DNA of 41,069 bases from a virus (IMGVR_UViG_2541047748_000013), one strand, 5' to 3'. Numbered from the stretch's first letter, positions 6,618-34,827 are shown. Translations and numbers: made by a program. Notes: a model not told the origin generated them from the sequence alone.

Positions 6618-6632
6618 TTACCTTTCAGGTAA
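6618..6632. promoter_or_regulatory. TTACC-N5-GGTAA dyad (putative phage repressor operator) upstream of the antirepressor island
   Basis: Perfect dyad TTACCTTTCAGGTAA; identical copy at 25793-25807. Confidence 0.5.
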
Positions 6633-6671
6633 TTTGCAAAACGTGCTGGATAGCAAACAAATTATTTGCTA

Positions 6672-6687
6672 CTGTATAAATATACAG
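6672..6687. promoter_or_regulatory. LexA (SOS) box
   Basis: CTGTATAAATATACAG matches CTGT-N8-ACAG with AT-rich spacer; overlaps a TATAAAT -10-like element 22 nt upstream of the 6709 start codon. Confidence 0.7.
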
Positions 6688-6708
6688 TTATTGCATGGAG
6701 AAGATAAG

Positions 6709-6966
6709 ATGCAGCAGTATCACTATCCACTGGAAGACGGATTTACCGAAAGGATTCACACGCCGGGAGGCGTCAGGTCACTGGTGGAGGGATCGCACTT
6801 GATGAAATTACTCCGGGATCTCGATAAGGATGGATTTAATGTCGATGGCCCACTTGCCGAACTGACTGCACTGATTAACTACGTCACCAGCTCACAGATG
6901 TCTATGCAGGATCTGCAAACACATCTCGACTATTGTGCCGAACAATTACGAAAACAAACCAGATAA
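6709..6966 (+). CDS. Small protein homologous to the C-terminal domain of the downstream antirepressor
   Basis: 86 aa; GGAG RBS 8 nt upstream; aligns by eye with the Ant C-terminus (LMKLLRDLDKDGFNVDGPLAELT / LMNLLNQLQEDGHDVSGAAAELT; QDLQTHLDY / RDIQTHAEY). Confidence 0.6.
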   Translation: MQQYHYPLEDGFTERIHTPGGVRSLVEGSHLMKLLRDLDKDGFNVDGPLAELTALINYVTSSQMSMQDLQTHLDYCAEQLRKQTR

Positions 6967-6997
6967 GATTTGAAATTACCAATAGGAGTGCTTATAT

Positions 6998-7012
6998 TTA
7001 CCTTTGCGGTAA
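6998..7012. promoter_or_regulatory. TTACC-N5-GGTAA dyad inside a larger hairpin between the ant-like gene and ant
   Basis: TTACCTTTGCGGTAA flanked by inverted repeat AGGAGTGC...GCACTCCT. Confidence 0.45.
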
Positions 7013-7103
7013 ATTTACATCGCACTCCTCTTGTGCCATAGTAATCGGGCACTGGCAAAATCCAGTGCCGGGATTGGCGTCCCGGGTTACTAAGTGGCGC
7101 ATA

Positions 7104-7125
7104 CCACGCCAGACGTGGTTTTTTT
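7104..7125 (+). terminator. Intrinsic terminator upstream of ant
   Basis: CCACG ccaga CGTGG followed by T7 run. Confidence 0.55.
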
Positions 7126-7281
7126 ATGCGTTAAGCACAGCTATATCCGAATTATGGTGGGCTGGGCAGGGGTCCGAAAGGACGCCGGTACCACTTAGGC
7201 CGGTACGCCAACCTTGTCCAGTTCACCACCAGTAATTGGCGTTGCGGTGGTGATTAAAATCACTAAGTGGAGATAACCACC

Positions 7282-7992
7282 ATGGCTAATGCTCAAACTG
7301 CCATCTTCAAATTTGAATCTGTTAACCCTATCCGTTCCATCATTATCGATGGCCAACCATGGTTTGTAGCCCAAGACGTTTGTAGTGCGCTGCGTATCCA
7401 AAACGTCACCCAAGCACTTGAAAAACTGGATGATGATGAAAGGTCTATGTTCAACATAGGGCATGAACATCGTGCAATTTTTGACAGCCGAGTAAAAGAG
7501 ATCAACATTATCTCCGAGTCAGGCCTCTACACACTGATCCTCCGCTGCCGCGACGCAGTGACACCAGGCACTATCCCCTACCGCTTTCGTAAATGGGTTA
7601 CAGGTGAGGTTCTTCCTCAGATCCGCCGCACCGGAAGCTACATTAAAAACTCGCTCCCGCAGGAAGAACGCATAAAGATGGTTGCCGACCAGGTAGCCAA
7701 CGCCACAGCATCAGCAGTAATGCAGGCGATGAAGATAGAGAACAAAACCTACAGCGCCCCGCTGAAGCCCGGCTACCGCAGTTTGATTCACTCGCCGTCG
7801 GGTGTTCTCGGCCTGACGGAGAACTCACTGCTGATGAATTTGCTGAACCAGTTACAGGAAGACGGGCATGACGTATCGGGCGCGGCGGCGGAGCTGACCA
7901 CCATGTTCTGCTACATCGTCGGTGTGAGCAAATGCCTGCGTGATATCCAGACCCACGCGGAGTACATCAACGACAAGGCAGGGTTCTTCTGA
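7282..7992 (+). CDS. ant: Antirepressor, Bro-N/KilA-N N-terminal domain with Ant-type C-terminal domain
   Basis: Bro-N-like N-terminus (FVAQDVCSAL...SGLYTLILRCRD); GGAG RBS 9 nt upstream of ATG at 7282. Confidence 0.8.
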   Translation: MANAQTAIFKFESVNPIRSIIIDGQPWFVAQDVCSALRIQNVTQALEKLDDDERSMFNIGHEHRAIFDSRVKEINIISESGLYTLILRCRDAVTPGTIPYRFRKWVTGEVLPQIRRTGSYIKNSLPQEERIKMVADQVANATASAVMQAMKIENKTYSAPLKPGYRSLIHSPSGVLGLTENSLLMNLLNQLQEDGHDVSGAAAELTTMFCYIVGVSKCLRDIQTHAEYINDKAGFF

Positions 7993-8077
7993 CGAGCGGC
8001 GGCACATGGATGTGCCTACAATTATCAATAATTGTTTACACTCGTTGCAGTTAAAAGCATTATACTCATGTTTAAAA

Positions 8078-8092
8078 TTACCCGATTGGTAA
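8078..8092. promoter_or_regulatory. TTACC-N5-GGTAA dyad overlapping the promoter region of the moron operon
   Basis: TTACCCGATTGGTAA 22 nt upstream of the 8114 start; TAAAAT -10-like hexamer abuts it. Confidence 0.45.
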
Positions 8093-8113
8093 AGTCGATT
8101 GGTTGAGGTTCAT

Positions 8114-8440
8114 ATGAGCAGAAGATATGTCAAGGAGCTGGCTATAGAGTCTGGCACCCCTTTGGGTATCGTTCCTGGCTCCAACTATGCCAAGGCTTTA
8201 AACCGAGACTCTGTCGTCAAAGTTATATCAAGAGACATGAATATGGTCGGAGACGATCTCAGACGGTCAGAAAATCGTGTTTATGCTGAATATATAGTAA
8301 AGAACGGAAAAAAAATTGCAGCGCCTGCTGGCGGAAAATGGGCAATAGTGACAGGGAAAAACTCAAATGCAAGAGGAAAACCAGAAGCTAAAGGAATGTC
8401 CTTCGACAAATATGCAAAAATCTATTGGGCAACCAAGTGA
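8114..8440 (+). CDS. Hypothetical protein (moron operon gene 1)
   Basis: ATG with GAGG RBS 5-6 nt upstream; 109 aa basic protein, no family recognised. Confidence 0.45.
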   Translation: MSRRYVKELAIESGTPLGIVPGSNYAKALNRDSVVKVISRDMNMVGDDLRRSENRVYAEYIVKNGKKIAAPAGGKWAIVTGKNSNARGKPEAKGMSFDKYAKIYWATK

Positions 8441-8915
8441 TAACGAAGAAACTGAGTTCGAGGAAGTTGAGGAAGGGCTAAGTAACGAGATCATTCAACA
8501 CCCAGATGCCTTCACAAGAGTTCTTGATCGCCCTGAAATTCAGGAGATAGTTGTCGCTCACCATGCGTTTCAGGGTCCGCTTCCTCCCCCCTATCTGCTT
8601 CGCGGGTATCAGGATATTTTACCTGATGCCCCCGAACGCATCTTCCAGCTGACGGAGAAGGAGTTTGCTCACCGCCAGAAAATGGAGGAAAAGGCACTTG
8701 ACGGGGCTATTAATAGAGATAAACGTGGGCAGTGGTTTGGCCTGAGTGCAACTATTTTTACAGTAGCTTGTGCAACATTATTAGGTTTAACAGGTCATGA
8801 AGTTCTAGCTGGCACAGTGATCGGTACAGTTGTTGCAGTGGCTGGTATTTTCGTTCTTAGACAAAAACCAAGCATCAAGAAGAAATCTGAAGACAACAAA
8901 CCTGAAGAAAAGTAA
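8367..8915 (+). CDS. DUF2335-like membrane protein (moron operon gene 2)
   Basis: Acidic N-terminus, HHAFQGPLPPPYLL motif, two C-terminal hydrophobic helices; overlaps previous ORF, start uncertain (8367 or 8412). Confidence 0.5.
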   Translation: MQEENQKLKECPSTNMQKSIGQPSDNEETEFEEVEEGLSNEIIQHPDAFTRVLDRPEIQEIVVAHHAFQGPLPPPYLLRGYQDILPDAPERIFQLTEKEFAHRQKMEEKALDGAINRDKRGQWFGLSATIFTVACATLLGLTGHEVLAGTVIGTVVAVAGIFVLRQKPSIKKKSEDNKPEEK

Positions 8916-8936
8916 GCCCGCGCTGCGGGCTTTTTT
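8916..8936 (+). terminator. Intrinsic terminator after the moron operon
   Basis: GCCCGC gct GCGGGC followed by T6. Confidence 0.6.
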
Positions 8937-8967
8937 GTGGACGAAACAAAAGTCAGTGCTACACTCA

Positions 8968-8995
8968 TTGACGCCACATTGAGGTGGCTTATAGA
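8968..8995 (+). promoter_or_regulatory. Putative sigma70 promoter for the small secreted-peptide gene
   Basis: TTGACG, 16-bp spacer, TATAGA. Confidence 0.35.
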
Positions 8996-9008
8996 TGGAA
9001 ATGTCACA

Positions 9009-9170
9009 ATGAAAAAAGCATTTGCTGCACTGTTCGTTTTGTTGTCTCTGGTAGCTTCAACTCAGGCCTTTGCCGGTCGTTGTCAGCACGACAGCGATAC
9101 CGCCGCTGACGGCTCCCGCTGCGGTGGGCGTTCTGCGGATTCCCGCCCGGGCGGCGGTGGCATTCGTTAA
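9009..9170 (+). CDS. Small secreted Cys-containing peptide (53 aa precursor)
   Basis: Signal peptide MKKAFAALFVLLSLVASTQAFA; own promoter and flanking terminators; internal Met of listed ORF 8937-9170. Confidence 0.4.
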   Translation: MKKAFAALFVLLSLVASTQAFAGRCQHDSDTAADGSRCGGRSADSRPGGGGIR

Positions 9171-9192
9171 AAACAAGGCCGCGAAAGCGGCC
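9171..9192. terminator. Bidirectional intrinsic terminator between convergent genes
   Basis: GGCCGC gaaa GCGGCC with A-run upstream and T-rich tract downstream. Confidence 0.55.
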
Positions 9193-9193
9193 T

Positions 9194-9205
9194 GTGACAT
9201 GTCAC
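9194..9205. repeat. 12-bp perfect palindrome GTGACATGTCAC, copy 1 of 3; contains the TGA stop of the 9202-9498 gene
   Basis: Exact 12-mer also at 26777-26788 and 29042-29053, each next to a terminator hairpin. Confidence 0.6.
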
Positions 9206-9498
9206 GTTCCTTTTCTGAATGATAGCCGTTCGAAAAATGATGACATTCCACCGCAGACAATAGCAAAGATGATCCCACCAAAGAAGAGAAGGCCAGCCTG
9301 CCACCACTCCCACCGCCATACATCCACAGCACCAACCATACCAACAATCGCTCCAACAAATGGAATATAGCTCACGATGAAAGCAATGGGGGCTGCAATT
9401 ATCCAGTGCAATCCCCACCATGATTCAAGCCCAGCCATAATTGCTGCCAACTGAAAAAGGCCAACGACGATATAAACAATGAATCCTATCGCTTGCAT
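9202..9498 (-). CDS. Small integral membrane protein (3 TM), superinfection-exclusion-like position
   Basis: 98 aa, Trp-rich hydrophobic helices, directly downstream of the ejection-protein genes. Confidence 0.5.
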   Translation of the reverse strand: MQAIGFIVYIVVGLFQLAAIMAGLESWWGLHWIIAAPIAFIVSYIPFVGAIVGMVGAVDVWRWEWWQAGLLFFGGIIFAIVCGGMSSFFERLSFRKGT

Positions 9499-9510
9499 GT
9501 AGTCACCTAT

Positions 9511-9684
9511 TTACCCAGTAAAAATCAGAGGCCTCCCCTCAATAAGGCTTGCAACAAGAACTATTCCCTGCACAACAAAGATGAACCAGCAAATAGCTTG
9601 AGTCTGAGGGTTAAGAAAATATTTGTAGCGGTCAATAAATAACAACCCACCAGAAATTATCACACTCAAAATAATTAAAAACAC
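9511..9684 (-). CDS. Possible small hydrophobic protein (GTG start)
   Basis: 57-codon ORF not in the supplied track; AAGGAAG RBS 4-5 nt upstream of GTG; two hydrophobic segments. Confidence 0.3.
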   Translation of the reverse strand: MFLIILSVIISGGLLFIDRYKYFLNPQTQAICWFIFVVQGIVLVASLIEGRPLIFTG

Positions 9685-9693
9685 AACACTTCC

Positions 9694-12168: not shown

Positions 12169-12173
12169 TTAAT

Positions 12174-17525: not shown

Positions 17526-19996
17526 CAGAATCCCCCAACAGTAAGGCGAGGAATAACGGCAAGAACAGACAGCGGCAACGGGTCAAGCTGACGGATTTTT
17601 ACACGTCCGTTTTTGCCCCAGTTACTGTCCAGTTTCACTTCTACTTTTCCGGTAGCGTCATCAACAGGATCATCGTAGAACTCGAATTCACGCTGTGGAT
17701 ATTCGTACCATTTACCGCCGGGCGTAGTCGCCCAGATGCCGCGACTGGCATTCACAACCAGAGTAACAGACGGGATCACCTGTTTTTTGTCCAGCAGCGT
17801 TTCCTGTCCGTTAATGTTGATATCCAGTGTTTCGAATTCAGCAGTTATTGGCAGGCCGATGTGCACTACAGCCCCCGGAGATTCCAGCGTGACGGCACCT
17901 CCGGAAACCACTTTCTGTGGTTCCACGTTCGCATCAGAGAGGATGTTTACGGTCTGGCCTTCAAGATGAGACAAGCCGCCAAATGTCCGGCGCGCCATCT
18001 GCCAGTTCGTGGTGGCCACATTCCTGAGGGATGGCGGGACGTTCCTGTTAGCACGAACCACTACAGCGGTATTGCTGGTTACAGAAATAATGTCGCAACG
18101 TAATTCTTTTGACACCTCATCGCCAGTATCAGGATCAGTTCCGGTATAAGGGAACTGTAGTTGCGCGCCGACATCACTACTGGTGAAGTACGCACCACCA
18201 GAAACACTGATTGTATATTCCGCGCGGTAATCCCATTCGCCAGAACCACCAGTGATGATCATCGTTCTGTCAGACGTATTTCTTCCATCATAGCTAAGGC
18301 CAGAATCAACAAAGAAAGCATCTTCATCGCTGGTAAATAAACGGCTGGACAGTCGCTCGATGTATCTCACTGTTTGCCCGTTAACGGTTCGGTTAATGAC
18401 GAAATACACCGCATCTTCATTGCCTTCGCTGATACTGCATGTGCTTTCATATTTTCCGGTACTGGACTGTGGTGCCCATGCAAAAACCTGTTGATCACGC
18501 AAATAGGTCATCACCAGTAATTTACCGTCATCACGAATGCAGAAGGCGCTGGAGTAAGGGACTATCGAGAAGCACCAGTCAACAATGCTGTGCTTCTGAA
18601 AAAGATGATTGGCAAGGATAGTAAGGTCGTTCCCCTGATAGCCGTCAACATCGAATGAGTAGGCCAGATCACGGACAACACTGCCTTTCTCCTGGACGAA
18701 CAGAGCAATATTCGCCACGGCAATTGGTGGGACATTGCTCGAGCCATTTGATCCCTGAGAGCTGAATGCAAATGATGATGGGGTAAGCACTTTGTTCTGG
18801 TCGCCAGTGATGACGTACTCACCTCCGGAAGTCAGCGCCACCAGCGAACCAACATCAATCAGGTGACGGATCTCATTAACCTGACGCCCGGCATAGGTGT
18901 AGATAATTCTGTCGTCATCCTGCGTAGGATTGCTTTTGCCAAAATCCTTATAATCCCCGGTACGGCTGGCCCAGATAGTCTGAGGAAACGCAGTCGATGC
19001 GGCGAAGTAAAGACGTTGTTGATAATAAACAACAGTGCCAGGATAACCATTAACACTGTTCCAGGCATATTTAGCCCATTTATAGCTGGCATTATCCTCG
19101 CCCACGACCTGCGAAGGGATATAGGAAATCACCTCGGCAGTTGCAGTAGTTCCATTTGCAGCAGTGATACGGGCAATGCCAAAACCACTGTGCAGATATT
19201 CCCACTCAATGCCAGTATCATCATCACCGGATCCGCCCCAGCCATCCCATGATGTGCCTTCTGTATGCGAAGGGCGCAAAGTACCTGTTTTGCCTGCTGT
19301 AACGGCGCGATAGTAGTTACTGTCTGCACGGCGAATATCGCCAATCGACGTACTCTTACTGGTTTCCCATACCGGCACAGAATCCACTGCAGGCTGTTCC
19401 AGATAGAACAATTTGCCTACCTGCTCCGCGCCAAAAATAGAGGCGCTTGCCGTTAGCGTAATTGTCCCGGTGCTGGCGCTGGCATAAACCGTCACTGACT
19501 CGTCAATATTGATATCTTCAAATGGCCCGTTCTTCGTTACCACATCAACCAGTTGCCAGTTGTCATGCGCATAGCGGCGCAACTCTTTCGGCGGGTATGC
19601 CGGATGAACCAGCGTAAGCACGTCTGCGCTTTGCGTGAATTTAATTCGGAACAGATCGGCTTCAGTATATGGCGTGGAAATTTCATAAATAACATTGCTG
19701 CTGTTCAGCACCAACGCACCATCTTTGATAACGCGCATGTACTGGTGTCCGAACTCCAGAGCATAAGTCTGAACCGTCGAGAACTGGAACGGGATCAGGC
19801 GGCATTTCCGATTTGGGTATTTGGCGGCACCGACAAAACGCGTACCAGGTCGATTCTCAACTCCGCCATACTGCCGCACGATAAAGTTATCGCACTTGCG
19901 CAATGCCACCTGGTACTTCGCCATGTCAATACGACCGTACAACGACGGTCCAATCTCACCACCGGCAAAGCTGGGCTGGATCCAACTGATAGCCAT
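17525..19996 (-). CDS. Tail tubular protein B-like (nozzle)
   Basis: 823 aa, follows a 201-aa tail tubular A-like gene; size and order as T7 gp11/gp12. Confidence 0.55.
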   Translation of the reverse strand: MAISWIQPSFAGGEIGPSLYGRIDMAKYQVALRKCDNFIVRQYGGVENRPGTRFVGAAKYPNRKCRLIPFQFSTVQTYALEFGHQYMRVIKDGALVLNSSNVIYEISTPYTEADLFRIKFTQSADVLTLVHPAYPPKELRRYAHDNWQLVDVVTKNGPFEDINIDESVTVYASASTGTITLTASASIFGAEQVGKLFYLEQPAVDSVPVWETSKSTSIGDIRRADSNYYRAVTAGKTGTLRPSHTEGTSWDGWGGSGDDDTGIEWEYLHSGFGIARITAANGTTATAEVISYIPSQVVGEDNASYKWAKYAWNSVNGYPGTVVYYQQRLYFAASTAFPQTIWASRTGDYKDFGKSNPTQDDDRIIYTYAGRQVNEIRHLIDVGSLVALTSGGEYVITGDQNKVLTPSSFAFSSQGSNGSSNVPPIAVANIALFVQEKGSVVRDLAYSFDVDGYQGNDLTILANHLFQKHSIVDWCFSIVPYSSAFCIRDDGKLLVMTYLRDQQVFAWAPQSSTGKYESTCSISEGNEDAVYFVINRTVNGQTVRYIERLSSRLFTSDEDAFFVDSGLSYDGRNTSDRTMIITGGSGEWDYRAEYTISVSGGAYFTSSDVGAQLQFPYTGTDPDTGDEVSKELRCDIISVTSNTAVVVRANRNVPPSLRNVATTNWQMARRTFGGLSHLEGQTVNILSDANVEPQKVVSGGAVTLESPGAVVHIGLPITAEFETLDININGQETLLDKKQVIPSVTLVVNASRGIWATTPGGKWYEYPQREFEFYDDPVDDATGKVEVKLDSNWGKNGRVKIRQLDPLPLSVLAVIPRLTVGGF

Positions 19997-21320: not shown

Positions 21321-21758
21321 TTAACCAGTTACTTTTGAGCGGATCGGATACGGCGTATTGGCATCAACATCAAGACTGATACCAGCAGTGAATTCGCCAG
21401 CCGTTAGCGGGCCAGTTGCGACGGAGTAGTTAACACGCAGATATCGCTGAACACCGGCAGGCACCTTTGCAGAAACAACTCGTTTACCTGCTGTCAGGGC
21501 GGTCTTTGCCAGTGCACCACTATCATAAATAGTGGTCCATGAGCTGTTATCCTCACTCGTCTGCAACTGGATGTTTACAGTTGCATCACCGCTTGCTGCG
21601 GCGGCTGTGTTAACCAGCGCCCAAAACTCAAGCGGGTAACCCACGCCGATATCACGACGTTTTCCGTCAATTGGACCGAGATCGATTACGTCAGTAGAAG
21701 CCGCGGTATCAGTTACCGCCTGTGCTTCGGAGAACATCAACAGTTTGTCGGTGATCAT
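21321..21758 (-). CDS. Possible capsid decoration / Ig-like protein
   Basis: 145 aa, immediately downstream of major capsid gene; beta-rich composition. Confidence 0.4.
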   Translation of the reverse strand: MITDKLLMFSEAQAVTDTAASTDVIDLGPIDGKRRDIGVGYPLEFWALVNTAAAASGDATVNIQLQTSEDNSSWTTIYDSGALAKTALTAGKRVVSAKVPAGVQRYLRVNYSVATGPLTAGEFTAGISLDVDANTPYPIRSKVTG

Positions 21759-25481: not shown

Positions 25482-25495
25482 TTCAATGACTCCGG

Positions 25496-25702: not shown

Positions 25703-25770
25703 ATCAATGACTCCGTACGCAATTAAATTATTACCAATTTAACCACATATGATTTATTTATCGTAGATAG

Positions 25771-25807
25771 TTGACATTTAACGCACAAATTATTACCTTT
25801 CAGGTAA
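25771..25807 (+). promoter_or_regulatory. Putative plus-strand promoter (TTGACA) with TTACC-N5-GGTAA dyad upstream of tRNA-Arg
   Basis: TTGACA at 25771-25776; dyad TTACCTTTCAGGTAA at 25793-25807 identical to the 6618 site. Confidence 0.4.
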
Positions 25808-26129: not shown

Positions 26130-26206
26130 GTGGCATTAGCTCAGTTGGACAGAGCAACCGCCTTCTAAGCGGTTGGTCGCAGGTTCGAATCCTGCATGCC
26201 ACGCCA
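26130..26206 (+). tRNA. tRNA-Arg (anticodon UCU)
   Basis: Manual cloverleaf: acceptor GTGGCAT/ATGCCAC, D-stem GCTC/GAGC, anticodon stem ACCGC/GCGGT with loop CTTCTAA, T-arm GCAGG-TTCGAAT-CCTGC, discriminator G, encoded CCA. Confidence 0.9.
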
Positions 26207-26249
26207 GAATCACGCCTAAGGACCGTGATGCCAGAAGTTCCAGGTGCTT

Positions 26250-26291
26250 GGCGGTGATGGTTTCCCTTGAAGGACTATCACCGCCCTTTTT
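26250..26291 (+). terminator. Intrinsic terminator downstream of tRNA-Arg
   Basis: GGCGGTGAT...ATCACCGCC stem followed by CTTTTT. Confidence 0.55.
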
Positions 26292-26400
26292 ACAGCAGGA
26301 CGCCATTGCGATGACTTCATGCTGTAAACCAGTACAGCCACGGAAGGCATAACTCATTGCTTCCGGTTCGCCGGGCATTTTTTTAAGGTGAGATTAGACT

Positions 26401-26772
26401 ATGAGTGACAAAGACATTGAATCTGAAATTCAGGCTAAAGGTTTAGCCGCGCCGCGCGTTACGCCAGACCATATCGAGAGCATTATTGCTCAGGAGGCAT
26501 ATTTCACAGCAGAAGATGGTGCCTTTGGCGTAGCCATAAAAGCGAAACATACTGGCGGAGAGGTAAACTACCAGCCGCACGAATCACTTTCTCTGCTGAC
26601 GTTCTGCGTCCTGGTGCTGCGCAACGGCTTCACCGTCACCGGAGAGAGCGCCTGTGCAAGCCCGGAAAACTTTGATGCGGAAATTGGTCGGAAGATTGCC
26701 CGGCAGAATGCTGTAAACAAAATCTGGATGCTTGAAGGTTACTTGCTGAAGCAGAAGTTAAGCGAGCAATAA
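26401..26772 (+). CDS. Gp49 / Sf6 gp66-family phage protein
   Basis: 123 aa; recalled resemblance to the Phage_gp49_66 family; plus-strand island inside the minus-strand late operon. Confidence 0.55.
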   Translation: MSDKDIESEIQAKGLAAPRVTPDHIESIIAQEAYFTAEDGAFGVAIKAKHTGGEVNYQPHESLSLLTFCVLVLRNGFTVTGESACASPENFDAEIGRKIARQNAVNKIWMLEGYLLKQKLSEQ

Positions 26773-26776
26773 CACC

Positions 26777-26788
26777 GTGACATGTCAC
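26777..26788. repeat. 12-bp palindrome GTGACATGTCAC, copy 2 of 3
   Basis: 4 nt after the Gp49-like stop, immediately followed by a terminator hairpin. Confidence 0.6.
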
Positions 26789-26791
26789 AAA

Positions 26792-26819
26792 CAGCCAGCC
26801 GATGAGCTGGCTTTGTTTT
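26792..26819 (+). terminator. Intrinsic terminator after the Gp49-like gene
   Basis: AGCCAGC cgatga GCTGGCT followed by TTGTTTT. Confidence 0.55.
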
Positions 26820-26862
26820 ATCCTCACCAGAGGATATCTCCGTCATTATCCCCGCTAACGGA

Positions 26863-28338: not shown

Positions 28339-28931
28339 TGATTGCCATCCTGACGTTCTTTCAGTCTCTTCCTGGCTGCCGCTATGCGATCAGCAATTGT
28401 CACATTCACATTAACATCCAGGCGTTCTTTGAATGCGTTGACGTCGACGTGCTTACCAATCAGTTCGAGGTTCTTCACCTTGTCAGGCCATTTAATTTTT
28501 TTGAGGATTGTCTCTATCGAATCCTCGTTCATGTTCATGATGGTCGATGACAGATCAAAGCCACTAAGCGTAGTGCGCCAGATTTTCGGCCACTCGCGGA
28601 TTGGCTTAAGGCTCCCATCGTCGTTGAGGATGTCGATCACGTCCATCTGGTCGATCTCCACCAGGCGCATGAGAACGTAATCAGCACTGACGCGCATTCG
28701 TTTGTTGCGCTCCTCCATCAACTCGGCAATCCGTTTTTGAATGCGTTCATCGCGCATCATGACACTGGCTTTAACTGCCGCTGTATTTGGGGAGAATCCT
28801 GCGTTAATCGCTGCCTGAGTCTGGTTTTCAGGCGTTTTGATGTATGACTGGCAATAAGCCTCCTGCATTGCTGTTAGTGGCTTAAATTGCGTTGATTTGC
28901 GTTTATAGGCTTTAGGTTCAGCAGGCATCAT
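28335..28931 (-). CDS. Terminase small subunit
   Basis: About 198 aa from internal Met pair (MMPAEP); immediately upstream of large subunit; listed ORF start at 29009 judged too far upstream. Confidence 0.7.
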   Translation of the reverse strand: MMPAEPKAYKRKSTQFKPLTAMQEAYCQSYIKTPENQTQAAINAGFSPNTAAVKASVMMRDERIQKRIAELMEERNKRMRVSADYVLMRLVEIDQMDVIDILNDDGSLKPIREWPKIWRTTLSGFDLSSTIMNMNEDSIETILKKIKWPDKVKNLELIGKHVDVNAFKERLDVNVNVTIADRIAAARKRLKERQDGNQ

Positions 28932-28948
28932 AACCACCGTGGTAATAG

Positions 28949-28963
28949 TTACCGTTGTGGTAA
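28949..28963. promoter_or_regulatory. TTACC-N5-GGTAA dyad cluster just upstream of the terminase small subunit start
   Basis: TTACCGTTGTGGTAA flanked by GGTAATAGTTACC and GGTAATAGTACC. Confidence 0.45.
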
Positions 28964-28971
28964 TAGTACCA

Positions 28972-29000
28972 TGCAAAATAAAGCCGCCATAGTTGGCGGC
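28972..29000 (-). terminator. Intrinsic terminator (minus orientation) in front of the packaging/late operon
   Basis: Minus-strand hairpin GCCGCC aactat GGCGGC followed by TTTATTTTG. Confidence 0.5.
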
Positions 29001-29041
29001 AGTATTCAAACCCCATCAAATTCATCATGCATAATCTACTC

Positions 29042-29053
29042 GTGACATGTCAC
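29042..29053. repeat. 12-bp palindrome GTGACATGTCAC, copy 3 of 3; contains the TGA stop of the 29050-29391 gene
   Basis: Exact 12-mer; about 40 nt upstream (minus direction) of the terminator hairpin. Confidence 0.6.
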
Positions 29054-29391
29054 ACTATTAATTTCGTTTCATGCCAGCCTTTAGTCACCCAGCATTGCGA
29101 GTCACCATCACACGGGCATGAATTCACAGGAACTCTCTCGCCGCACTTACCGCAACGTTTTCTGCTGATCGATTTTATACGCCCGTGCACGCGTGCATCA
29201 TCCTGGCGGATCAGTAACGCTATATACTCACCAAATTCGTAAGGCGCACGCCCGGGGCGACGCGTGGCACAGTTACGCTCCAGCATTTCAATTTCCTGAG
29301 CATCAAGCACAATTTCCAGCTTACGCACACCAGATGCAGCTTGTCTGGCTCTCTGAGCGGCTTTGCGCTCTGCTGCTGATTTAGCCATCAA
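29050..29391 (-). CDS. Zn-ribbon protein (C-terminal CxxC...CPC), candidate late-gene regulator
   Basis: 113 aa; basic Ala/Arg-rich N-terminus and Cys4 cluster CGKCG...CPCDG; last gene before late terminator and terminase. Confidence 0.5.
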   Translation of the reverse strand: MMAKSAAERKAAQRARQAASGVRKLEIVLDAQEIEMLERNCATRRPGRAPYEFGEYIALLIRQDDARVHGRIKSISRKRCGKCGERVPVNSCPCDGDSQCWVTKGWHETKLIV

Positions 29392-29662
29392 TATTCACCT
29401 TTATCGCGAACACCTTTACCGGTTTATCGCCGAAGTGGGGATGTGTGATTGTCTTGATTTCATATCCGTCATACGGAATATCAATTCTGCGGCTGGAATC
29501 GTCGCGCTTCGGATATCCCTTTGTGATAATCAGGCGGTCATACTCGCGGAACATAATTCGCTTATTCCAGTAGTCATTACACAGGCGATACTCTTCCGTT
29601 TTCTCTCCGCGAATCATGGCATCGAAGTATTCACCTTTAACGGCAAGTTGCAGGTTAGCCAC
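29381..29662 (-). CDS. DUF3850/ASCH-like (PUA-fold) phage protein
   Basis: 93 aa; recalled resemblance (VKGEYFDAMIRGEKTEEYR). Confidence 0.5.
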   Translation of the reverse strand: MANLQLAVKGEYFDAMIRGEKTEEYRLCNDYWNKRIMFREYDRLIITKGYPKRDDSSRRIDIPYDGYEIKTITHPHFGDKPVKVFAIKVNIDG

Positions 29663-29745
29663 GACCTTCCTCCTTTGGCTTGTGAATTTGTATCGTCATG
29701 CCGCTTTGAGTGGTGACTACAACGACAGAACCAGGCTGAAGACTG

Positions 29746-29943
29746 TTAAGATTGAATGCTTCGTAAAACGAAGCCAAGGCCAGCGCTTTTTTTATTCTTT
29801 CGGTTCCACCAACGCCATCCATTGCTACAGGCTACACTGACAATCCACTGTCCACTCCTGTAAGCCATATAAAACCAGATGAGCAAAACCTGAATGAATG
29901 CTATCCAGTCAATAATCGTATATTTCGCGAAGGAGACCATCAA
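29746..29943 (-). CDS. Possible small membrane protein
   Basis: 65 aa, hydrophobic N-terminal helix, start abuts upstream gene stop; weak support. Confidence 0.3.
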   Translation of the reverse strand: MMVSFAKYTIIDWIAFIQVLLIWFYMAYRSGQWIVSVACSNGWRWWNRKNKKSAGLGFVLRSIQS

Positions 29944-30512
29944 TTAACCTCCTGCGGCGGTTCCGGTAGAGGCATCCAGTACAAGGCGTTCCCTAACCAC
30001 GATAAAGTGCCGTCGCTCAACTCCACGTATTCCCCTTGTACCTGTCCTGCCATATACTCGCCGTGCTTTGAATAAATTAAAATCCAATCATCTTGAGCGG
30101 GCATTCGCTCACTACAGCTTATCCAACCATCCGGAGTTACCGGATAGTTGCCCGACAGCTCGTTCAACTTGTAAGTTTGGCTTACAGGTTCGGCTTCCAG
30201 TTCTGCAATGCGCTTCTCTGCAGCTTCCAGCTCAACGCGCAGCTTCCCTACCGTTAGCGCAATTTCCTCGTTCTCCTGGTCGCGGCGTTTGATGTATTGC
30301 TGGTTTCTTTCCCGTTCATCCAGCAGCGCCAGCACGGTTTCTGGTCCGGTCAGAAATTTGAAGGCGTTGAGCGCATCAATATCCACACCGTAATCCTTAA
30401 GTTCCTGTTCACTTAACAAATCATCATCAACTGGCAACATTAACAGGCGTTCCATTGCCGGAATTGCACGTTCTGCCGCCTCACGCAGTGCCTGATAGTC
30501 AATCTTGTTCAC
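29940..30512 (-). CDS. DUF551-domain protein (coiled-coil N-terminus)
   Basis: C-terminal WISCSERMPAQDDWILIY...ALYWMPLPEPP motif; start placed at GTG with AAGGGAG RBS 7 nt upstream instead of the listed ATG at 30593. Confidence 0.55.
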   Translation of the reverse strand: MNKIDYQALREAAERAIPAMERLLMLPVDDDLLSEQELKDYGVDIDALNAFKFLTGPETVLALLDERERNQQYIKRRDQENEEIALTVGKLRVELEAAEKRIAELEAEPVSQTYKLNELSGNYPVTPDGWISCSERMPAQDDWILIYSKHGEYMAGQVQGEYVELSDGTLSWLGNALYWMPLPEPPQEVN

Positions 30513-30804
30513 TGGTTGTCTCCCTTGCAGGGCTTTCGAATGTATCAAACTCAAACAACTTAACCACGTCATCAAACAGGACATAATCGCCATCAGGATC
30601 TTCAGTCATGTCAGCGCCACACTCCTGACCGAACGAGTCACAACCATCCATATCAAGCTCGTATCGCTTCAGGTTTGCGATATTTGATAAATTCAGCGCC
30701 AGTACAGCTAGGGCATAAACCTCTTCGGCGGTATACCCTGCGCCATGCCCATACATTTCAATGCGGGATATGATTTCTTCTACCCGTTGTTTTGTGATCG
30801 TCAT
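30499..30804 (-). CDS. Acidic hypothetical protein
   Basis: 101 aa, contiguous in nin-like operon. Confidence 0.5.
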   Translation of the reverse strand: MTITKQRVEEIISRIEMYGHGAGYTAEEVYALAVLALNLSNIANLKRYELDMDGCDSFGQECGADMTEDPDGDYVLFDDVVKLFEFDTFESPARETTSEQD

Positions 30805-31280
30805 TTTTGCTCACCTCCATGTTCTTCCAGAAAAATACGCATAGCCTCAAGCATCTCTTCGGTGTCATACGGAGACAGCTTGTCACGCAGGATGTGTTCA
30901 ATGCTGTTAATGAACTTTCGGATTGCTTTGCGTTCAATTTCAGTCAGGAAAGCATCGGTGGCTGGGGTGTCTGATTGCAGAGACTTTGCGCGATAGTCAT
31001 TCCACCCTCTTGCATACATGGGATTAACTCGCACTCCATCTTTTACGCAATATGCCTGCCCTCCACGGTTGATAACCTTGATTTCGTCCATAGCGCCAGA
31101 CTTCAGCCCCGCATTCTCTGCCGCCAGCGCATTAGCACGCACCAGTTGCACTTCCAGTTGCGTTGCCAAATCGCTGATCAGCTTTGCCACACTGCGCATA
31201 TCAACGGCACCACATTCTGCTTTCAGTTCCGAAGCCATCTCATGCCCGGCGGCAACTAACCCTTTGATATTACTTTCCAT
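30801..31280 (-). CDS. Hypothetical protein (possibly Ead/Ea22-like)
   Basis: 159 aa, coiled-coil N-terminus; 4-nt overlap with next gene. Confidence 0.5.
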   Translation of the reverse strand: MESNIKGLVAAGHEMASELKAECGAVDMRSVAKLISDLATQLEVQLVRANALAAENAGLKSGAMDEIKVINRGGQAYCVKDGVRVNPMYARGWNDYRAKSLQSDTPATDAFLTEIERKAIRKFINSIEHILRDKLSPYDTEEMLEAMRIFLEEHGGEQK

Positions 31281-31341
31281 CTTTACCCTCGCTTATCCAC
31301 ATAACTTATTGATTACATTGATAACTAAAAAGATCGTCGAT

Positions 31342-31686
31342 TCAGAACTCTTCGATGTTCCAGCCACCACCTGCTTTCTTTGGTTTAACCGTTACCCCGA
31401 TGATTCGGAACGGATACTGATCTGCGGCGACTTTGGTTTTCACCCTGGCGTCGTCGGTCCAGAAACCTTTCACTTCGTGCAGTTCCATCTCTCCGGTGGC
31501 GAGCATCACAGCGAAATCTGGCGTATAGAACGTGTTGTCAGCTAACCGCAGCTTGATACCCTCGAATCGATACCAGGCGATTTCCCCTGCACGTTTACGC
31601 AGCTCAAGGTGCTGGCAATACGCAGATTCAGTTTTGTTCATCTGGCCTGTTTTGAGTCGACCAAGAGCCTGTATCTGTTTTCTCAT
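31342..31686 (-). CDS. DUF1064-like phage protein (possible nuclease fold)
   Basis: 114 aa; own promoter-like element and operator dyad overlapping the RBS. Confidence 0.5.
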   Translation of the reverse strand: MRKQIQALGRLKTGQMNKTESAYCQHLELRKRAGEIAWYRFEGIKLRLADNTFYTPDFAVMLATGEMELHEVKGFWTDDARVKTKVAADQYPFRIIGVTVKPKKAGGGWNIEEF

Positions 31687-31689
31687 GAT

Positions 31690-31704
31690 TTACCTCTGAG
31701 GTAA
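31690..31704. promoter_or_regulatory. TTACC-N5-GGTAA dyad overlapping the Shine-Dalgarno of the DUF1064-like gene
   Basis: TTACCTCTGAGGTAA 4 nt from the start codon; the GAGG of the right arm is the only RBS-like element. Confidence 0.5.
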
Positions 31705-31751
31705 TTAAAAACCACATAAGACATGAAATCAATAGAGTTTATAATATTTTG

Positions 31752-31766
31752 TTACCTAACAGGTAA
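31752..31766. promoter_or_regulatory. TTACC-N5-GGTAA dyad between replication and nin-like genes
   Basis: TTACCTAACAGGTAA. Confidence 0.45.
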
Positions 31767-31803
31767 TTATCGAGGCGTAAAAAAATGCGCTATCGCGCTG
31801 GTA

Positions 31804-32580
31804 TTACTTGATAAATCCTGCCGCCTTTCCCCGCCTGTATTCCTCCATCAGCCACTGCGCCGGTGTTATTCCCCCAAGGGTGGCGGCGTTAGGCATGCAC
31901 CCGAAACTTCGCCCTGGTGGATGGTAAACGTCTCTCCCTGTGTCCGGAGGTGTACTCATGGGCTCTGGCTTTGCCTGTATGCTGATCACCGGATCGGGTA
32001 TCTGCTGTCCGGAAGCCACCTTTTTCGCCCAATCATCGAGCAGCCTGCGCGCGTGTTTCTCAACCTCACTCTCGCTAAGCTGGCGCTGATACATTGCACG
32101 ACGGGTATCACATACGACCCAGTACATAACCGGATGCCGCCACGGGAATCTTTCGGGACCACCAGGATATAAACTTTTTTCCTTGCTGTACCGGTGAAAC
32201 TCCGCCATCACATCGTCAATGGTGACGCCAAGAACCATCTTGCTGTCTTTGCACCACTTGATGAATTGCCCTGGCGACGGCCAGAACGGAGATTCACTGG
32301 CGCGGGCGTGGCGCATACCAGCGTTAACCTGTTCCATTGTAGTGATCCCATTCTCCAGAAACGCAAGCATCCATTGCTTACGGAATTCATTAAGTTTGTT
32401 CTGCTCCCTTATGGTCGAAACGCTTGCAGGAAATGCAGCCTGTAACTGGACAAATAGTTCATTGAAAATTCTAGCAACCTGCTCCTTTTTGCCATTGCTG
32501 TCACGCCGCTCTTCATGCACAGCAACACCATGCTCACGTAAGCGATCGTACTCATTGAGAAGTTCTGGAGTTGATTTCAT
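31804..32580 (-). CDS. P: Replication protein P-like helicase loader
   Basis: Recalled strong similarity to lambda P (ENGITTMEQVNAGMR, PSPGQF). Confidence 0.8.
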   Translation of the reverse strand: MKSTPELLNEYDRLREHGVAVHEERRDSNGKKEQVARIFNELFVQLQAAFPASVSTIREQNKLNEFRKQWMLAFLENGITTMEQVNAGMRHARASESPFWPSPGQFIKWCKDSKMVLGVTIDDVMAEFHRYSKEKSLYPGGPERFPWRHPVMYWVVCDTRRAMYQRQLSESEVEKHARRLLDDWAKKVASGQQIPDPVISIQAKPEPMSTPPDTGRDVYHPPGRSFGCMPNAATLGGITPAQWLMEEYRRGKAAGFIK

Positions 32581-33400
32581 CCCACACCCCTTCTATCCAG
32601 TCAGTGTTATTCCAGTCAAGCTCATCGCTTTTCCCGGCATTTTTTGATTTTCCCCTGATATGATTTACGTGCCTGGCGAATTTTTGTTCCCACTGAACCT
32701 GCGTGAACACTTTGCCCTCAGCCATCCAGTAATCCCGGAATGCAGCAAGTTCAGCAGGTGTAAATTCCGGTTCCGGCAGGGCCGTTCCCCACAGCGCAGC
32801 ACGCCGCCGAAAATCTGGCGACGGTAGCCAGCCATCTGTCATCGGAAATTTCCCGATGGGTTCACTCAGGCCATCCAGAAATTCAGGTTCTGCCACCTGC
32901 AACGGCGTACTGTTCGCTTCACTGGTCGGAGCACCCTCGCACACGTGCGCTATGTGTGGGGTTTTATATATATCTTCCTCTTCCTCTTCCTCTGGTAACT
33001 CCTTTTGTAACGCTGTTGGCGTTACTTTTTGCGTTACTCGTTTTCGATGCTCTGCCACTCTTCTATTCGTAAGTGCACGTTTTTTCGATGATTCTCCATT
33101 ATGTCGCTCAAAGTTTGGAAGAATTAGTTTGCCGTCATGATAAGCAAGCCATCCGACGCTAATGAGGGCGTCAGCAAATCCTGTAATAAAAGCGAGTCTA
33201 TCAAGTACTCCTTTTGTAACGCTGCCAGCGTTACCGTCTATTGTTTGCTGGTCAGCCCATGCCCATATACGAACCAGCTTTCCAAGAACAGCATCTGGAT
33301 CAATACCCAGAATTTCTGCTATCTGAAAAATTTCAGGTTTATCAGGAGTGATAACTTCAACCTTAATCCAGCTGCTTGCCATAGGTTTCCCCTCTTGCAC
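32552..33400 (-). CDS. Replication initiator / replisome organizer (lambda O analogue)
   Basis: N-terminal replisome-organizer-like domain, poly-Glu linker, C-terminal DnaT-like region; iterons inside the coding sequence. Confidence 0.7.
   Translation of the reverse strand: MQEGKPMASSWIKVEVITPDKPEIFQIAEILGIDPDAVLGKLVRIWAWADQQTIDGNAGSVTKGVLDRLAFITGFADALISVGWLAYHDGKLILPNFERHNGESSKKRALTNRRVAEHRKRVTQKVTPTALQKELPEEEEEEDIYKTPHIAHVCEGAPTSEANSTPLQVAEPEFLDGLSEPIGKFPMTDGWLPSPDFRRRAALWGTALPEPEFTPAELAAFRDYWMAEGKVFTQVQWEQKFARHVNHIRGKSKNAGKSDELDWNNTDWIEGVWDEINSRTSQ
32960..33234. repeat. Putative replication origin: paired 19-bp palindromic iterons plus AT-rich tract inside the O-like gene
   Basis: GTAACGCTGTTGGCGTTAC (33007-33025) and GTAACGCTGCCAGCGTTAC (33216-33234), both preceded by CTCCTTTT; extra GCGTTAC at 33031; AT-rich GTTTTATATATATC near 32961. 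Confidence 0.5.
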
Positions 33401-33575
33401 TCTTTAGTGCACAAGCAAATTCATTACGATGGCGGTTGGCGCTATTCATTGCACATTCAACACATGTTCCGTTCAGAACATACCTTTCAGAGAGATGGCC
33501 GTGACGGCACCGCTTTCCTGTGAAATAGCGATTTAACCCGGCTTTTGCGGCCTCCATTCTGGTTACTATCTTCAA
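33363..33575 (-). CDS. Small Cys/His-rich protein in the cII position
   Basis: 64-70 aa, CRHGH...CVEC cluster; overlaps O-like start; weak RBS; low support. Confidence 0.3.
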   Translation of the reverse strand: MKIVTRMEAAKAGLNRYFTGKRCRHGHLSERYVLNGTCVECAMNSANRHRNEFACALKSARGETYGKQLD

Positions 33576-33653
33576 TTTTTCCGCCCCTTTTTGTTATTGA
33601 TATTGGCTATTTTGCACAATTGGAAAATTTGATCAACCAGATTTGGTTTTTTA

Positions 33654-33668
33654 TTACCTTTGAGGTAC
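33654..33668. promoter_or_regulatory. TTACC-N5-GGTAC dyad between cro-like and downstream genes
   Basis: TTACCTTTGAGGTAC, imperfect right arm. Confidence 0.4.
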
Positions 33669-33670
33669 GA

Positions 33671-33701
33671 ATAGATATGAAAAGACCGCCGGGTGGCGGT
33701 C
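33671..33701 (-). terminator. Weak intrinsic terminator after the cro-like gene (tR1-like position)
   Basis: GACCGCC-ACCC-GGCGGTC hairpin followed by TTTTCAT on the minus strand. Confidence 0.3.
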
Positions 33702-33723
33702 TACAGAGGGTTGTAGCTGGATA

Positions 33724-33954
33724 TCATGAGTAGAAGAAGTATGCCAGTTCTGCTTTTGAGCGCAGCCATTGTCTTGTTTTACAGGCTTTAAAAAGCCCAT
33801 TCATCAATACCTTACCTGGCATTTTGCGCTTACCTGTTAAGTGAGTCTGGATATAGTGACTCGTCGTTCCGGCTTCCTGTGCGAAGGCTTCACGCTCATC
33901 CGGAGTAAGTGCAAGCCAGTGCTTTTTGAAATCGAAATGTCCGTTATCGCTCAT
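33724..33954 (-). CDS. Cro-like HTH regulator
   Basis: 76 aa; HTH-like segment (FAQEAGTTSHYIQTHLTGKRKMP); divergent from the repressor gene across an operator-rich 154-bp region. Confidence 0.6.
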   Translation of the reverse strand: MSDNGHFDFKKHWLALTPDEREAFAQEAGTTSHYIQTHLTGKRKMPGKVLMNGLFKACKTRQWLRSKAELAYFFYS

Positions 33955-33990
33955 AGCTATTGCCTGATATTTATTTCAGATAATAAATAT

Positions 33991-34053
33991 TCACCCATAA
34001 GGTAACAAAAATCAAGGATAGTTACCTATGGGGTGCATTTACCTGTTGGGTAA
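33991..34053. promoter_or_regulatory. Tripartite operator in the divergent repressor/cro promoter region
   Basis: Three dyads: TCACCCATAAGGTAA (33991-34005), TTACCTATGGGGTGC (34022-34036), TTACCTGTTGGGTAA (34039-34053). Confidence 0.55.
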
Positions 34054-34108
34054 TATTGCTTTAAATTGAATCATCTACTGATTCATATATGAGGCGATTT
34101 CCCAGAAA

Positions 34109-34693
34109 ATGAAAAGTATCCAGGACGTCCGCAGGCAAAATCTCAACGACTTGATCGACCGTGAATTCAATGGTGTTCAGACGCGGATGGCTGAAAAACT
34201 TGGAACTCAGGCAAATCTGGTAAACCGCTGGGCTCTTGGCAAGAAGGTTATCGGCGACCAGGTTGCACGAAAAATTGAAGCTGCCGCCAATAAACCCCGT
34301 AACTGGCTTGATATTGATCGCTCGCTTTCTCAGGAGGGTTTTCAGCCTGTCGGCCCGAGCGATATAGGTCAGCTGGCGGCTCACAACCTGGAACGCTGGA
34401 TGAGCGAAAGCCGCGACCTTTCAACGCAGGGAAAACTACACCGCGCATCCGGCGTCGCCCAGGTGACAATCAGCCGCCTGTTAAACAATGAGGTCAGCGT
34501 TTCCATTTCCACCCTGGAGAATGTTGCATCCGCATTCGGGCGTCACGGCTATGAATTACTGATTCACCCGCACGACCCTGCGACCATCAACTATGATCGC
34601 TCGCGCTACGCATTGTTACCCGAAACCGAGAAAGCAAAGATCGAAAGTTACATTGAATTTGTCATCAACCAGAACGAAAAAAACAAACAATAA
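34109..34693 (+). CDS. CI-type repressor with tandem HTH domains and no S24 peptidase domain
   Basis: 194 aa; two XRE-like HTH segments; no Ala-Gly/Ser-Lys autocleavage domain visible; short leader. Confidence 0.6.
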   Translation: MKSIQDVRRQNLNDLIDREFNGVQTRMAEKLGTQANLVNRWALGKKVIGDQVARKIEAAANKPRNWLDIDRSLSQEGFQPVGPSDIGQLAAHNLERWMSESRDLSTQGKLHRASGVAQVTISRLLNNEVSVSISTLENVASAFGRHGYELLIHPHDPATINYDRSRYALLPETEKAKIESYIEFVINQNEKNKQ

Positions 34694-34715
34694 AATCATA
34701 TTTTTCAGTAAGTAA

Positions 34716-34738
34716 GCCGCCTTCTGGCGGCTTTTTTA
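34716..34738 (+). terminator. Intrinsic terminator after the repressor gene
   Basis: GCCGCC ttct GGCGGC followed by T6. Confidence 0.6.
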
Positions 34739-34750
34739 TTGCCTATACGA

Positions 34751-34765
34751 TTACCTAACGGGTAA
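34751..34765. promoter_or_regulatory. TTACC-N5-GGTAA dyad upstream of early-left promoter
   Basis: TTACCTAACGGGTAA. Confidence 0.5.
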
Positions 34766-34784
34766 TTTTTTTAACTCATATCTA

Positions 34785-34812
34785 TTGACATCAAACCAGA
34801 TACGCATAATCA
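34785..34812 (+). promoter_or_regulatory. Putative early-left (PL-like) promoter
   Basis: TTGACA at 34785-34790, CATAAT-like -10 around 34805-34812, bracketed by two operator dyads. Confidence 0.45.
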
Positions 34813-34827
34813 TTACCTCAACGGTAA
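34813..34827. promoter_or_regulatory. TTACC-N5-GGTAA dyad just downstream of the PL-like -10
   Basis: TTACCTCAACGGTAA. Confidence 0.5.

Follow-up and report, generated by a model that had tools for sequence, protein, structure and literature searches.

Dyads in front of early, accessory and late transcription units of an epsilon15-like prophage are probable operators of its Rep repressor

The window, a stretch of 41,069 nucleotides from the viral sequence IMGVR_UViG_2541047748_000013, is a prophage of Escherichia coli of the epsilon15/phiV10 type (genus Uetakevirus), integrated at guaA. Copies of a dyad of 15 base pairs (bp), TTACC-N5-GGTAA, are located in front of its early, accessory and late transcription units. 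The number, placement and conservation of the dyads indicate that they are operators of the immunity repressor Rep and that the Cro-like protein encoded next to rep probably reads them too; the probability that this reading is correct is roughly 80%.

Number and placement of the dyads

The exact motif occurs at ten sites in the window, compared with 0.03 expected from dinucleotide shuffles, and 13 sites match it with at most one mismatch, compared with an expectation of 0.58. A first-order Markov model restricted to intergenic DNA predicts 0.0055 exact copies instead of ten. A fourteenth copy, TTACCTATGGGGTGC at position 34022, differs from the motif in two positions and is located 2 bp from the dyad at 34039. 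A weight matrix was built from the 13 sites, with 34022 left out of the training set. The 14 sites score 16.2–26.4 on this matrix (16.2 for 34022 and at least 16.4 for each of the others), and the next-best match in the window scores 11.4, which makes the distribution bimodal. The extended consensus is aTTACCtnwnaGGTAAt, with a symmetric 15-mer as its core. The dyad family is a real feature of the sequence, and its members are in all likelihood functional. The sites are as follows.

6618–6632: exact dyad TTACCTTTCAGGTAA in the divergent gap between the tailspike gene (minus strand, start 6513) and ant (plus strand, 6709); conserved in five phages.
6998–7012: exact dyad at the promoter that feeds the isrK-like RNA, the C4 RNA and the BRO-N gene; syntenic copies at 21393 in Enterobacter phage Tyrion and 17377 in Klebsiella phage BUCT711.
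8078–8092: exact dyad 21 bp before the accessory operon 8114–9170.
25793–25807: exact dyad 90 bp upstream of gp3/portal (late operon, minus strand).
28931–28945: dyad TAACCACCGTGGTAA with one mismatch, 2 bp before the likely terS start, ATG 28928.
28949–28963: exact dyad, the partner of 28931, just downstream of a conserved terminator running from 29000 to 28983.
31690–31704: exact dyad, proximal in the nin region, covering the ribosome-binding site of a DUF1064 gene.
31752–31766: exact dyad, distal in the nin region, just after a conserved terminator running from 31798 to 31779.
33654–33668: dyad with one mismatch, past the terminator 3' of cro and upstream of a gp40-like gene; syntenic one-mismatch copies at Tyrion 35365 and BUCT711 6032.
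33991–34005: OR-type dyad with one mismatch, between the −35 and −10 hexamers of the cro-side promoter.
34022–34036: middle OR-type dyad with two mismatches, 31 bp from 33991 and 17 bp from 34039.
34039–34053: exact OR-type dyad closest to rep, 55 bp before the rep start codon.
34751–34765: exact dyad, distal in the PL-like region, just after the rep terminator at 34714–34733.
34813–34827: exact dyad, proximal in the PL-like region, 62 bp from 34751.

All 14 sites are non-coding, and non-coding DNA makes up 9.6% of the prophage. The count requires the start of terS to be moved to ATG 28928, which places both terS dyads outside the gene. This start agrees with those in the Salmonella phages epsilon15 and SPC32H and in Tyrion, and gives a product of 197 residues. 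The start annotated in RefSeq, TTG 29009, would put the conserved terminator and both dyads inside the gene.

The counts confirm the dyad family described in the first-pass annotation of the window, and all 13 of its coordinates proved correct when the sequence was rescanned. However, its list omitted the one-mismatch site at 28931, and its entry at 34022 qualifies only if two mismatches are allowed. It had placed dyads at the rep/cro and PL-like regions and before the antirepressor island, the accessory operon, the nin-like genes and the terminase operon, all of which stands. It had placed the dyad at 25793 in front of tRNA-Arg; the conservation runs from this dyad towards gp3/portal.

A further dyad with one mismatch, ATACCTTTAAGGTAA, is present 43 bp upstream of int at coordinates 41112–41126, just beyond the end of the window. 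A dyad at about the same distance before int is found in epsilon15, SPC32H, Tyrion, BUCT711 and a divergent E. coli prophage. Because of this conservation, the int promoter seems to belong to the same regulon.

Dyads are in register with promoters and terminators

At least six dyads abut or sit inside promoter-like hexamers. At four promoters the −10 hexamer and the dyad share one base, the T that ends the hexamer and opens the dyad, and the dyad is therefore centred on the predicted transcription start (+1).

PL-like promoter, plus strand: −35 TTGACA at 34785, 17-bp spacer, −10 AATCAT ending at 34813; dyad 34813.
nin-region promoter, minus strand: −35 TTGATT at 31732–31727, −10 TTTAAT at 31709–31704; dyad from 31704, centred on the predicted +1.
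isrK/C4/BRO-N promoter, plus strand: −35 TTGAAA at 6970, 17-bp spacer, −10 TATATT ending at 6998; dyad 6998.
Promoter of the operon starting at 8114: −35 TTAAAA at 8051, −10-like TAAAAT at 8073–8078; dyad 8078.

At the PL-like and nin-region promoters, another dyad follows shortly after a terminator, exactly 62 bp upstream of the first. The gap between rep and cro contains three dyads with spacings of 31 and 17 bp, and the one nearest to cro fills the spacer of the cro-side promoter on the minus strand (TTGTTA at 34008, TATTAT at 33980). The two terS dyads are 18 bp apart and are wedged between the conserved terminator and the start codon. Single dyads are positioned upstream of gp3/portal, in the tailspike–ant gap and after the terminator that follows cro. 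A conserved TTGACA on the plus strand is located 17 bp from the dyad at 25793.

The order of terminator, one or two dyads and next unit is repeated at four boundaries.

28983–29000: terminator before terS.
31779–31798: terminator before the nin-region promoter.
33683–33702: terminator after cro.
34714–34733: terminator after rep.

The terS and nin-region cassettes are conserved in relatives, and this suggests that each unit is insulated from the preceding one.

Conservation of motif, slots and spacing in relatives

Related genomes were scanned by pattern search, and the weight matrix was used on the window. Copies with no more than one mismatch number 15 in epsilon15, 15 in Tyrion and 13 in BUCT711, with fewer than one expected in each. 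The genome of SPC32H, for which there is no chance estimate, contains ten exact and eight one-mismatch copies, and about five of the latter are intragenic. The same motif is present in the same slots in a Serratia prophage and in the divergent E. coli prophage. The shared slots are the rep–cro gap, the PL side, the nin region, terS, gp3/portal and the tailspike/ant gap. They are kept although the Rep proteins are only 42–78% identical and the flanking intergenic DNA otherwise aligns only in part. Six orthologous intergenic alignments from five phages show no change in the half-sites and retain the promoter hexamers, and the central 5 bp vary freely. Invariant half-sites around a free centre are the pattern of a site for a dimeric protein, not of an RNA structure.

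The 62-bp spacing is found at both paired promoters in five phages, except that the PL-like pair of BUCT711 is spaced by 63 bp. It is also present in nearly all of 80 IMG/VR contigs that were compared, each of which encodes a Rep 100% identical to that of the window. A dyad precedes rep by 70 bp in all 80 of these loci, and the terS and gp3 sites persist in the contigs at varying distances from rep. The 18-bp terS pair occurs in epsilon15 and Tyrion as well; in SPC32H only the first dyad of the pair matches with at most one mismatch.

Cobetia phage Carin1, which shares the structural module (portal 50% identical) and has no Rep homologue, contains no dyad. It is a weak negative control, because its higher G+C content lowers the chance expectation to 0.07, compared with 0.58 in the window. 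Sodalis phage phiSG1 was dropped as an outgroup because its record is a degraded mosaic.

The first-pass annotation had proposed that the site of a single phage regulator stands before early, accessory and late units. The comparisons bear this out: the same dyad is in the same slots in all Rep-carrying relatives, is missing from Rep-less Carin1 and overlaps promoter hexamers or the predicted +1. The comparative data also support its suggestion of a global repressor regulon; however, such a regulon had already been predicted in the GenBank record of epsilon15 (AY150271.2). That record contains seven protein_bind features labelled "repressor; lysogeny", and all seven coincide with matches to TTACC-N5-GGTAA.

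Epsilon15 12–27: before terS, equivalent of window 28949.
Epsilon15 2931–2947: before gp3/portal, equivalent of window 25793.
Epsilon15 19895–19911: before the tailspike gene, equivalent of window 6618.
Epsilon15 32479–32494, 32554–32570 and 32616–32632: PL side.
Epsilon15 35906–35922: nin region, equivalent of window 31752.

The record marks 7 of the 15 sites of epsilon15 and none between rep and cro. Repressor sites before late operons are not a new idea, since the epsilon15 record already predicts them. To this the present analysis adds the complete list of sites in the prophage, the centring of dyads on the predicted +1, the constant 62-bp spacing of the pairs, the inclusion of isrK/C4/BRO-N and int, and the constancy of specificity across host genera.

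Rep as the predicted reader of the dyads

The two regulators that are encoded divergently around the three OR-type dyads are as follows.

34109–34693, plus strand: rep, encoding 194 residues with an N-terminal helix-turn-helix and a C-terminal half for tetramerisation and Ant binding; presumed binder of the dyads.
33724–33954, minus strand: gene of the Cro-like regulator, divergent from rep; matches phrog_35, "transcriptional repressor" (E-value 5.6e-13).

Rep was compared with Pfam, PHROGs and PDB. It matches the Rep of SPC32H (PDB 5D50) over residues 1–190 with an E-value of 4e-42, and it is 42–43% identical to the Reps of epsilon15 and SPC32H. Pfam assigns helix-turn-helix families only, and no S24 peptidase domain was found in the protein. 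SPC32H Rep binds palindromic sites as a tetramer, in which the DNA-reading pairs are formed across dimers, and the tetrameric antirepressor Ant disassembles it (PMC9638917). The fold of its tetramerisation domain has been linked by the authors to DNA looping (PMC9986798). In phage ZX5, whose Rep is identical to that of the window, overexpression of Rep lowered holin and endolysin transcripts by more than 99.9%; the publication contains no operator analysis (PMC9782041).

The putative recognition stretch of Rep, NLVNRW, is invariant in the compared phages, and the pattern NL[VI][NS]RW is nearly invariant among 86 Rep homologues down to 52% identity. Two homologues with changed helices, NLISRW in the Serratia prophage (54% identity, one of the most divergent) and NLVSRW in an E. 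coli prophage (59%), occur together with unchanged motif and slots. The operator half-sites and the Rep stretch are alike in phages of Escherichia, Salmonella, Klebsiella, Enterobacter and Serratia, down to identities of 42–54%; in Citrobacter homologues the helix, which was the part compared, is conserved too. Immunity specificity appears not to have diversified across host genera, unlike that of lambdoid or Cluster A phages. The Cro-like protein has its own invariant stretch, AGTTSHYIQ.HLT, in five phages, and it is a possible second binder of the dyads.

Several observations weigh against Rep as the reader of all dyads. A search for covariation between the Rep helix and the motif, covering the 80 loci, the 86 homologues and the two helix variants, gave no signal; because the reading stretches of Rep and of the Cro-like protein are both invariant, covariation cannot assign the binder. 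Inspection by eye of the dyads at terS, gp3 and tailspike/ant found weak candidates for sigma-70 hexamers and no convincing ones, so the case for promoter occlusion is weaker at these sites than for the early promoters. Rep could work there as a roadblock, or by competition with an activator. No dyad precedes the lysis operon of the window according to the matrix scan of the 306-bp gap at 3088–3393. A dyad is present before the holin/lysis genes of epsilon15, SPC32H and Tyrion; in the window the lysis genes are directly 3' of the tailspike gene on the same strand. A loop of 62 bp would be tight, and two independent tetramers could bind a pair of dyads, which explains the conserved spacing less well. 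Binding at distal sites was not reported in the literature searched, which did not extend to the primary papers on epsilon15 and SPC32H, and a full-text search for the motif returned nothing relevant.

Some of these points would also fit an alternative, judged unlikely, in which the Cro-like protein or a further phage regulator, and not Rep, acts at the distal dyads and these serve lytic timing, not lysogenic silencing. The putative reading helix of the Cro-like protein, a member of a transcriptional-repressor family, does not vary among the compared phages, the PL operon encodes AlpA-like and PerC-like regulators, and the lack of good sigma-70 hexamers at late operons is expected of activator-dependent promoters. 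However, the distal dyads cannot be told apart in sequence from the dyads of the rep–cro gap, a place where repressor action is required. Furthermore, SPC32H Rep has been reported on palindromic sites (PMC9638917), and overexpression of ZX5 Rep abolishes late transcripts (PMC9782041), although this effect could be indirect.

It is very improbable that the dyads are sites for a host transcription factor borrowed by the phage. The motif is kept in phages of five or more enterobacterial genera, as would be the case for a conserved host protein; however, it clusters in the divergent rep–cro region, the classic position of operators, and always accompanies a Rep homologue with an invariant reading helix. 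About 15 kilobases (kb) of flanking E. coli DNA contain one one-mismatch site, which is intragenic and no more than expected by chance. No E. coli regulator is known to have half-sites in this order.

There is just as little to recommend the dyads as module-boundary, recombination, replication or packaging signals, such as recombinase sites or iterons. They do occur at junctions of modules with variable content, and the distances from rep to terS and gp3 differ among the 80 contigs. By contrast, they keep a precise register with the −35 and −10 hexamers and +1 in relatives, the rep–cro gap contains three of them as a tripartite operator of standard layout, and they show no origin-like clustering. 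The reading of the dyads as RNA hairpins that serve as terminators, processing sites or translational operators was rejected as hardly credible. Each dyad can fold into a hairpin of 4–5 bp, and those at 31690 and 28931 cover ribosome-binding sites. However, the folding energy is no better than −3 to −3.5 kcal/mol, T-runs are not a regular feature, and the arms have kept their sequence in all relatives, with no compensatory changes. Moreover, many dyads are not spanned by any one transcript, being upstream of promoters or in the gap of a divergent gene pair, and no dyad has a match in Rfam.

Proposed mechanism of silencing and induction

We infer, from promoter geometry and from homology to SPC32H Rep, that Rep binds at every site, that paired dyads are bridged and that transcription starts within the +1-centred dyads. 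Each Rep tetramer would carry two DNA-reading units, one for each 15-bp dyad, as in the SPC32H homologue, and would read the invariant half-sites TTACC and GGTAA, leaving the central 5 bp unread. Because the dyad is centred on the predicted transcription start at the PL-like, nin-region, isrK/C4/BRO-N and accessory-operon promoters, Rep bound on +1 would exclude RNA polymerase from these four promoters. At the cro-side promoter, the operator in the spacer between −35 and −10 would block RNA polymerase, and two further operators would be positioned beside the rep promoter. A distance of 62 bp corresponds to about six helical turns, which places both dyads of a pair on the same face of the DNA. 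One Rep tetramer could thus hold both dyads of the PL-like or nin-region pair and clamp the promoter.

Since each unit has its own terminator and its own dyad, silencing in the lysogen would be direct and not the result of a cascade. The dyads before terS, gp3/portal, tailspike/ant and int would each silence their unit in this way. Upon DNA damage, LexA would be removed from its box at 6670–6689, the small Ant would be made and would strip Rep from the DNA, and all units would open together. After Rep leaves, the Cro-like protein probably uses the same sites.

It is proposed tentatively, and with more doubt than confidence, that one non-cleavable tetrameric repressor directly gates every unit, late operons included, through +1-centred operators with a fixed partner 62 bp away. 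If so, no late-gene cascade is needed for the phage to stay silent. From the operator map, transcription is predicted to begin within the dyads near 34820, 31697, 7005 and 8085; repression should be sensitive to the helical phase of the 62-bp pairs, and all units should open at once when Ant is made.

The presence of about 15 dispersed operators may have frozen the immunity specificity, which would explain why the half-sites and the Rep helix are identical across at least six host genera. Cross-immunity and antirepressor cross-talk between prophages of different genera would follow. The invariance of the motif itself suggests that a Rep or an Ant from one lysogen could be active on the prophage of another, unrelated lysogen. 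This prophage type is common in E. coli, and the operator map can serve directly as its regulatory annotation.

Comparison with known immunity systems

The window resembles epsilon15 and SPC32H in the half-sites, their spacing and their slots (terS, gp3/portal, tailspike/ant, PL, nin, rep–cro and int). It also shares with them a full-length Rep homologue and, with SPC32H, the 88% identical Ant and the LexA box before ant. Unlike epsilon15, it has two additional units with dyads at their promoters, the isrK/C4/BRO-N cassette and the operon starting at 8114. The known picture of the epsilon15/SPC32H switch is left unchanged by these comparisons, which would extend it to the distal predicted sites.

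In phage P1, one operator of the C1 repressor is located at the promoter of the immI operon, which starts with the C4 antisense RNA and encodes an antirepressor. Similarly, a dyad in the window is predicted to gate a promoter that is followed by a C4 RNA homologue and the BRO-N gene. P1 also resembles the window in having one repressor with many dispersed operators, of which there are 22; however, the P1 operators are asymmetric 17-mers, ATTGCTCTAATAAATTT (PMC8546580), whereas the sites in the window are symmetric 15-mers. The stoperators of mycobacteriophage L5 and other Cluster A phages likewise provide one immunity repressor with 20–30 sites throughout the genome. However, stoperators are asymmetric, follow the direction of transcription, are mostly located away from promoters and block elongation (PMC6550527); the dyads are symmetric and overlap or adjoin promoter hexamers. 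Stoperator motifs also co-vary with their repressors, whereas the motif in the window is invariant across the family. The set of sites is thus of neither the P1 nor the L5 type, because both use asymmetric sites and stoperators act on elongation.

As in the CI/Cro switch of lambda, a tripartite operator (33991, 34022 and 34039) is situated between divergent genes for a repressor and a Cro-like protein, and a second set of operators is found downstream of the repressor gene at the leftward early promoter. Unlike in lambda, nine of the 14 dyads are outside the OL- and OR-type regions, and induction is expected to proceed by antirepressor and not by cleavage. The system is not a lambda-type switch, because Rep has no autocleavage domain and the operators are not confined to two regions.

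Antirepressor and induction genes

The region between the tailspike gene and the accessory operon contains a LexA box, the small antirepressor gene and the isrK/C4/BRO-N cassette.

6670–6689: LexA box TACTGTATAAATATACAGTT, 20 bp before ant, with two mismatches to the 20-bp consensus; conserved in five phages.
6709–6966, plus strand: ant, small antirepressor of the SPC32H type; 88% identical to SPC32H Ant.
7049–7125, plus strand: isrK-like small RNA (Rfam, 67.7 bits, above the gathering score).
7150–7233, plus strand: C4 antisense RNA (Rfam, 66 bits, above the gathering score).
7282–7992: BRO-N gene (Bro-N domain, E-value 9.6e-20), 3' of the isrK-like and C4 RNAs.

Control of Ant by LexA has been described for the SPC32H phage type (PMC7380047). 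Judged by homology, the isrK/C4/BRO-N segment of this epsilon15-like prophage is an antirepressor cassette of the P1 immI kind. Together with the SPC32H-type Ant, it gives the prophage two predicted antirepressor systems side by side.

Identity and condition of the prophage

The immunity region (31000–36000) matches the chromosomes of E. coli SF-468 and several further strains with 100% identity. Its identity to phages vB_EcoP_ZX5, HEMP4, TL-2011b and phiV10, all members of the epsilon15 group (Uetakevirus), is 97–99% over the aligning 52–78% of the query. When this 5-kb region was used as a query, 795 of 5426 complete genomes matched part of it, a number that overstates the carriers of this immunity type because the region also contains replication genes common to other phages. 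The gene order is that of epsilon15. Rep is followed by the PL-like operon (exo, recT, AlpA-like, PerC-like and methylase genes); divergent from rep are the cro-like gene, replication genes and nin-like genes; and the remaining block consists of terS/terL, gp3/portal/capsid/tail, tailspike and lysis genes. The gene guaA adjoins the element in the RefSeq annotation. The attachment core known from ZX5 was located at 1163–1179, and the other end of the window is the start codon of int.

Three genes are frameshifted or truncated pseudogenes according to RefSeq: the DUF4752 gene (29655–29940), an ead-like gene (30201–30455) and a DnaT-like gene (32630–32938). This particular prophage may therefore be replication-defective.

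The tailspike gene (3394–6513, minus strand) is annotated with the catalytic beta-propeller domain of an endosialidase, in an epsilon15-like temperate podovirus from a blood isolate. The domain implies specificity for the polysialic acid (K1) capsule. The close relative phiV10 has been named in reviews of engineered and reporter phages.

Conserved sequences near the tailspike and gp3 genes

A conserved lone half-site and, after it, a good −10-like hexamer (GGTAATAGAAT) are present at 6562–6572 on the minus strand. They are 52 bp away from the dyad at 6618 and precede the tailspike start by about 50 bp. Five phages share the stretch ATTCTATTACC without change.

Upstream of gp3, a 40-bp block, ATATGTGGTTAAATTGGTAATAATTTAATTGCGTACGGAG (25711–25750, minus strand), differs in no more than three bases among five phages whose Reps are 42–78% identical. 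By contrast, the DNA upstream of the nearby dyad at 25793 does not align. The block occurs once in the window and contains the palindrome TTAAATT-GGTAAT-AATTTAA. A late promoter, an activator site and a 5' leader are candidate functions for it.

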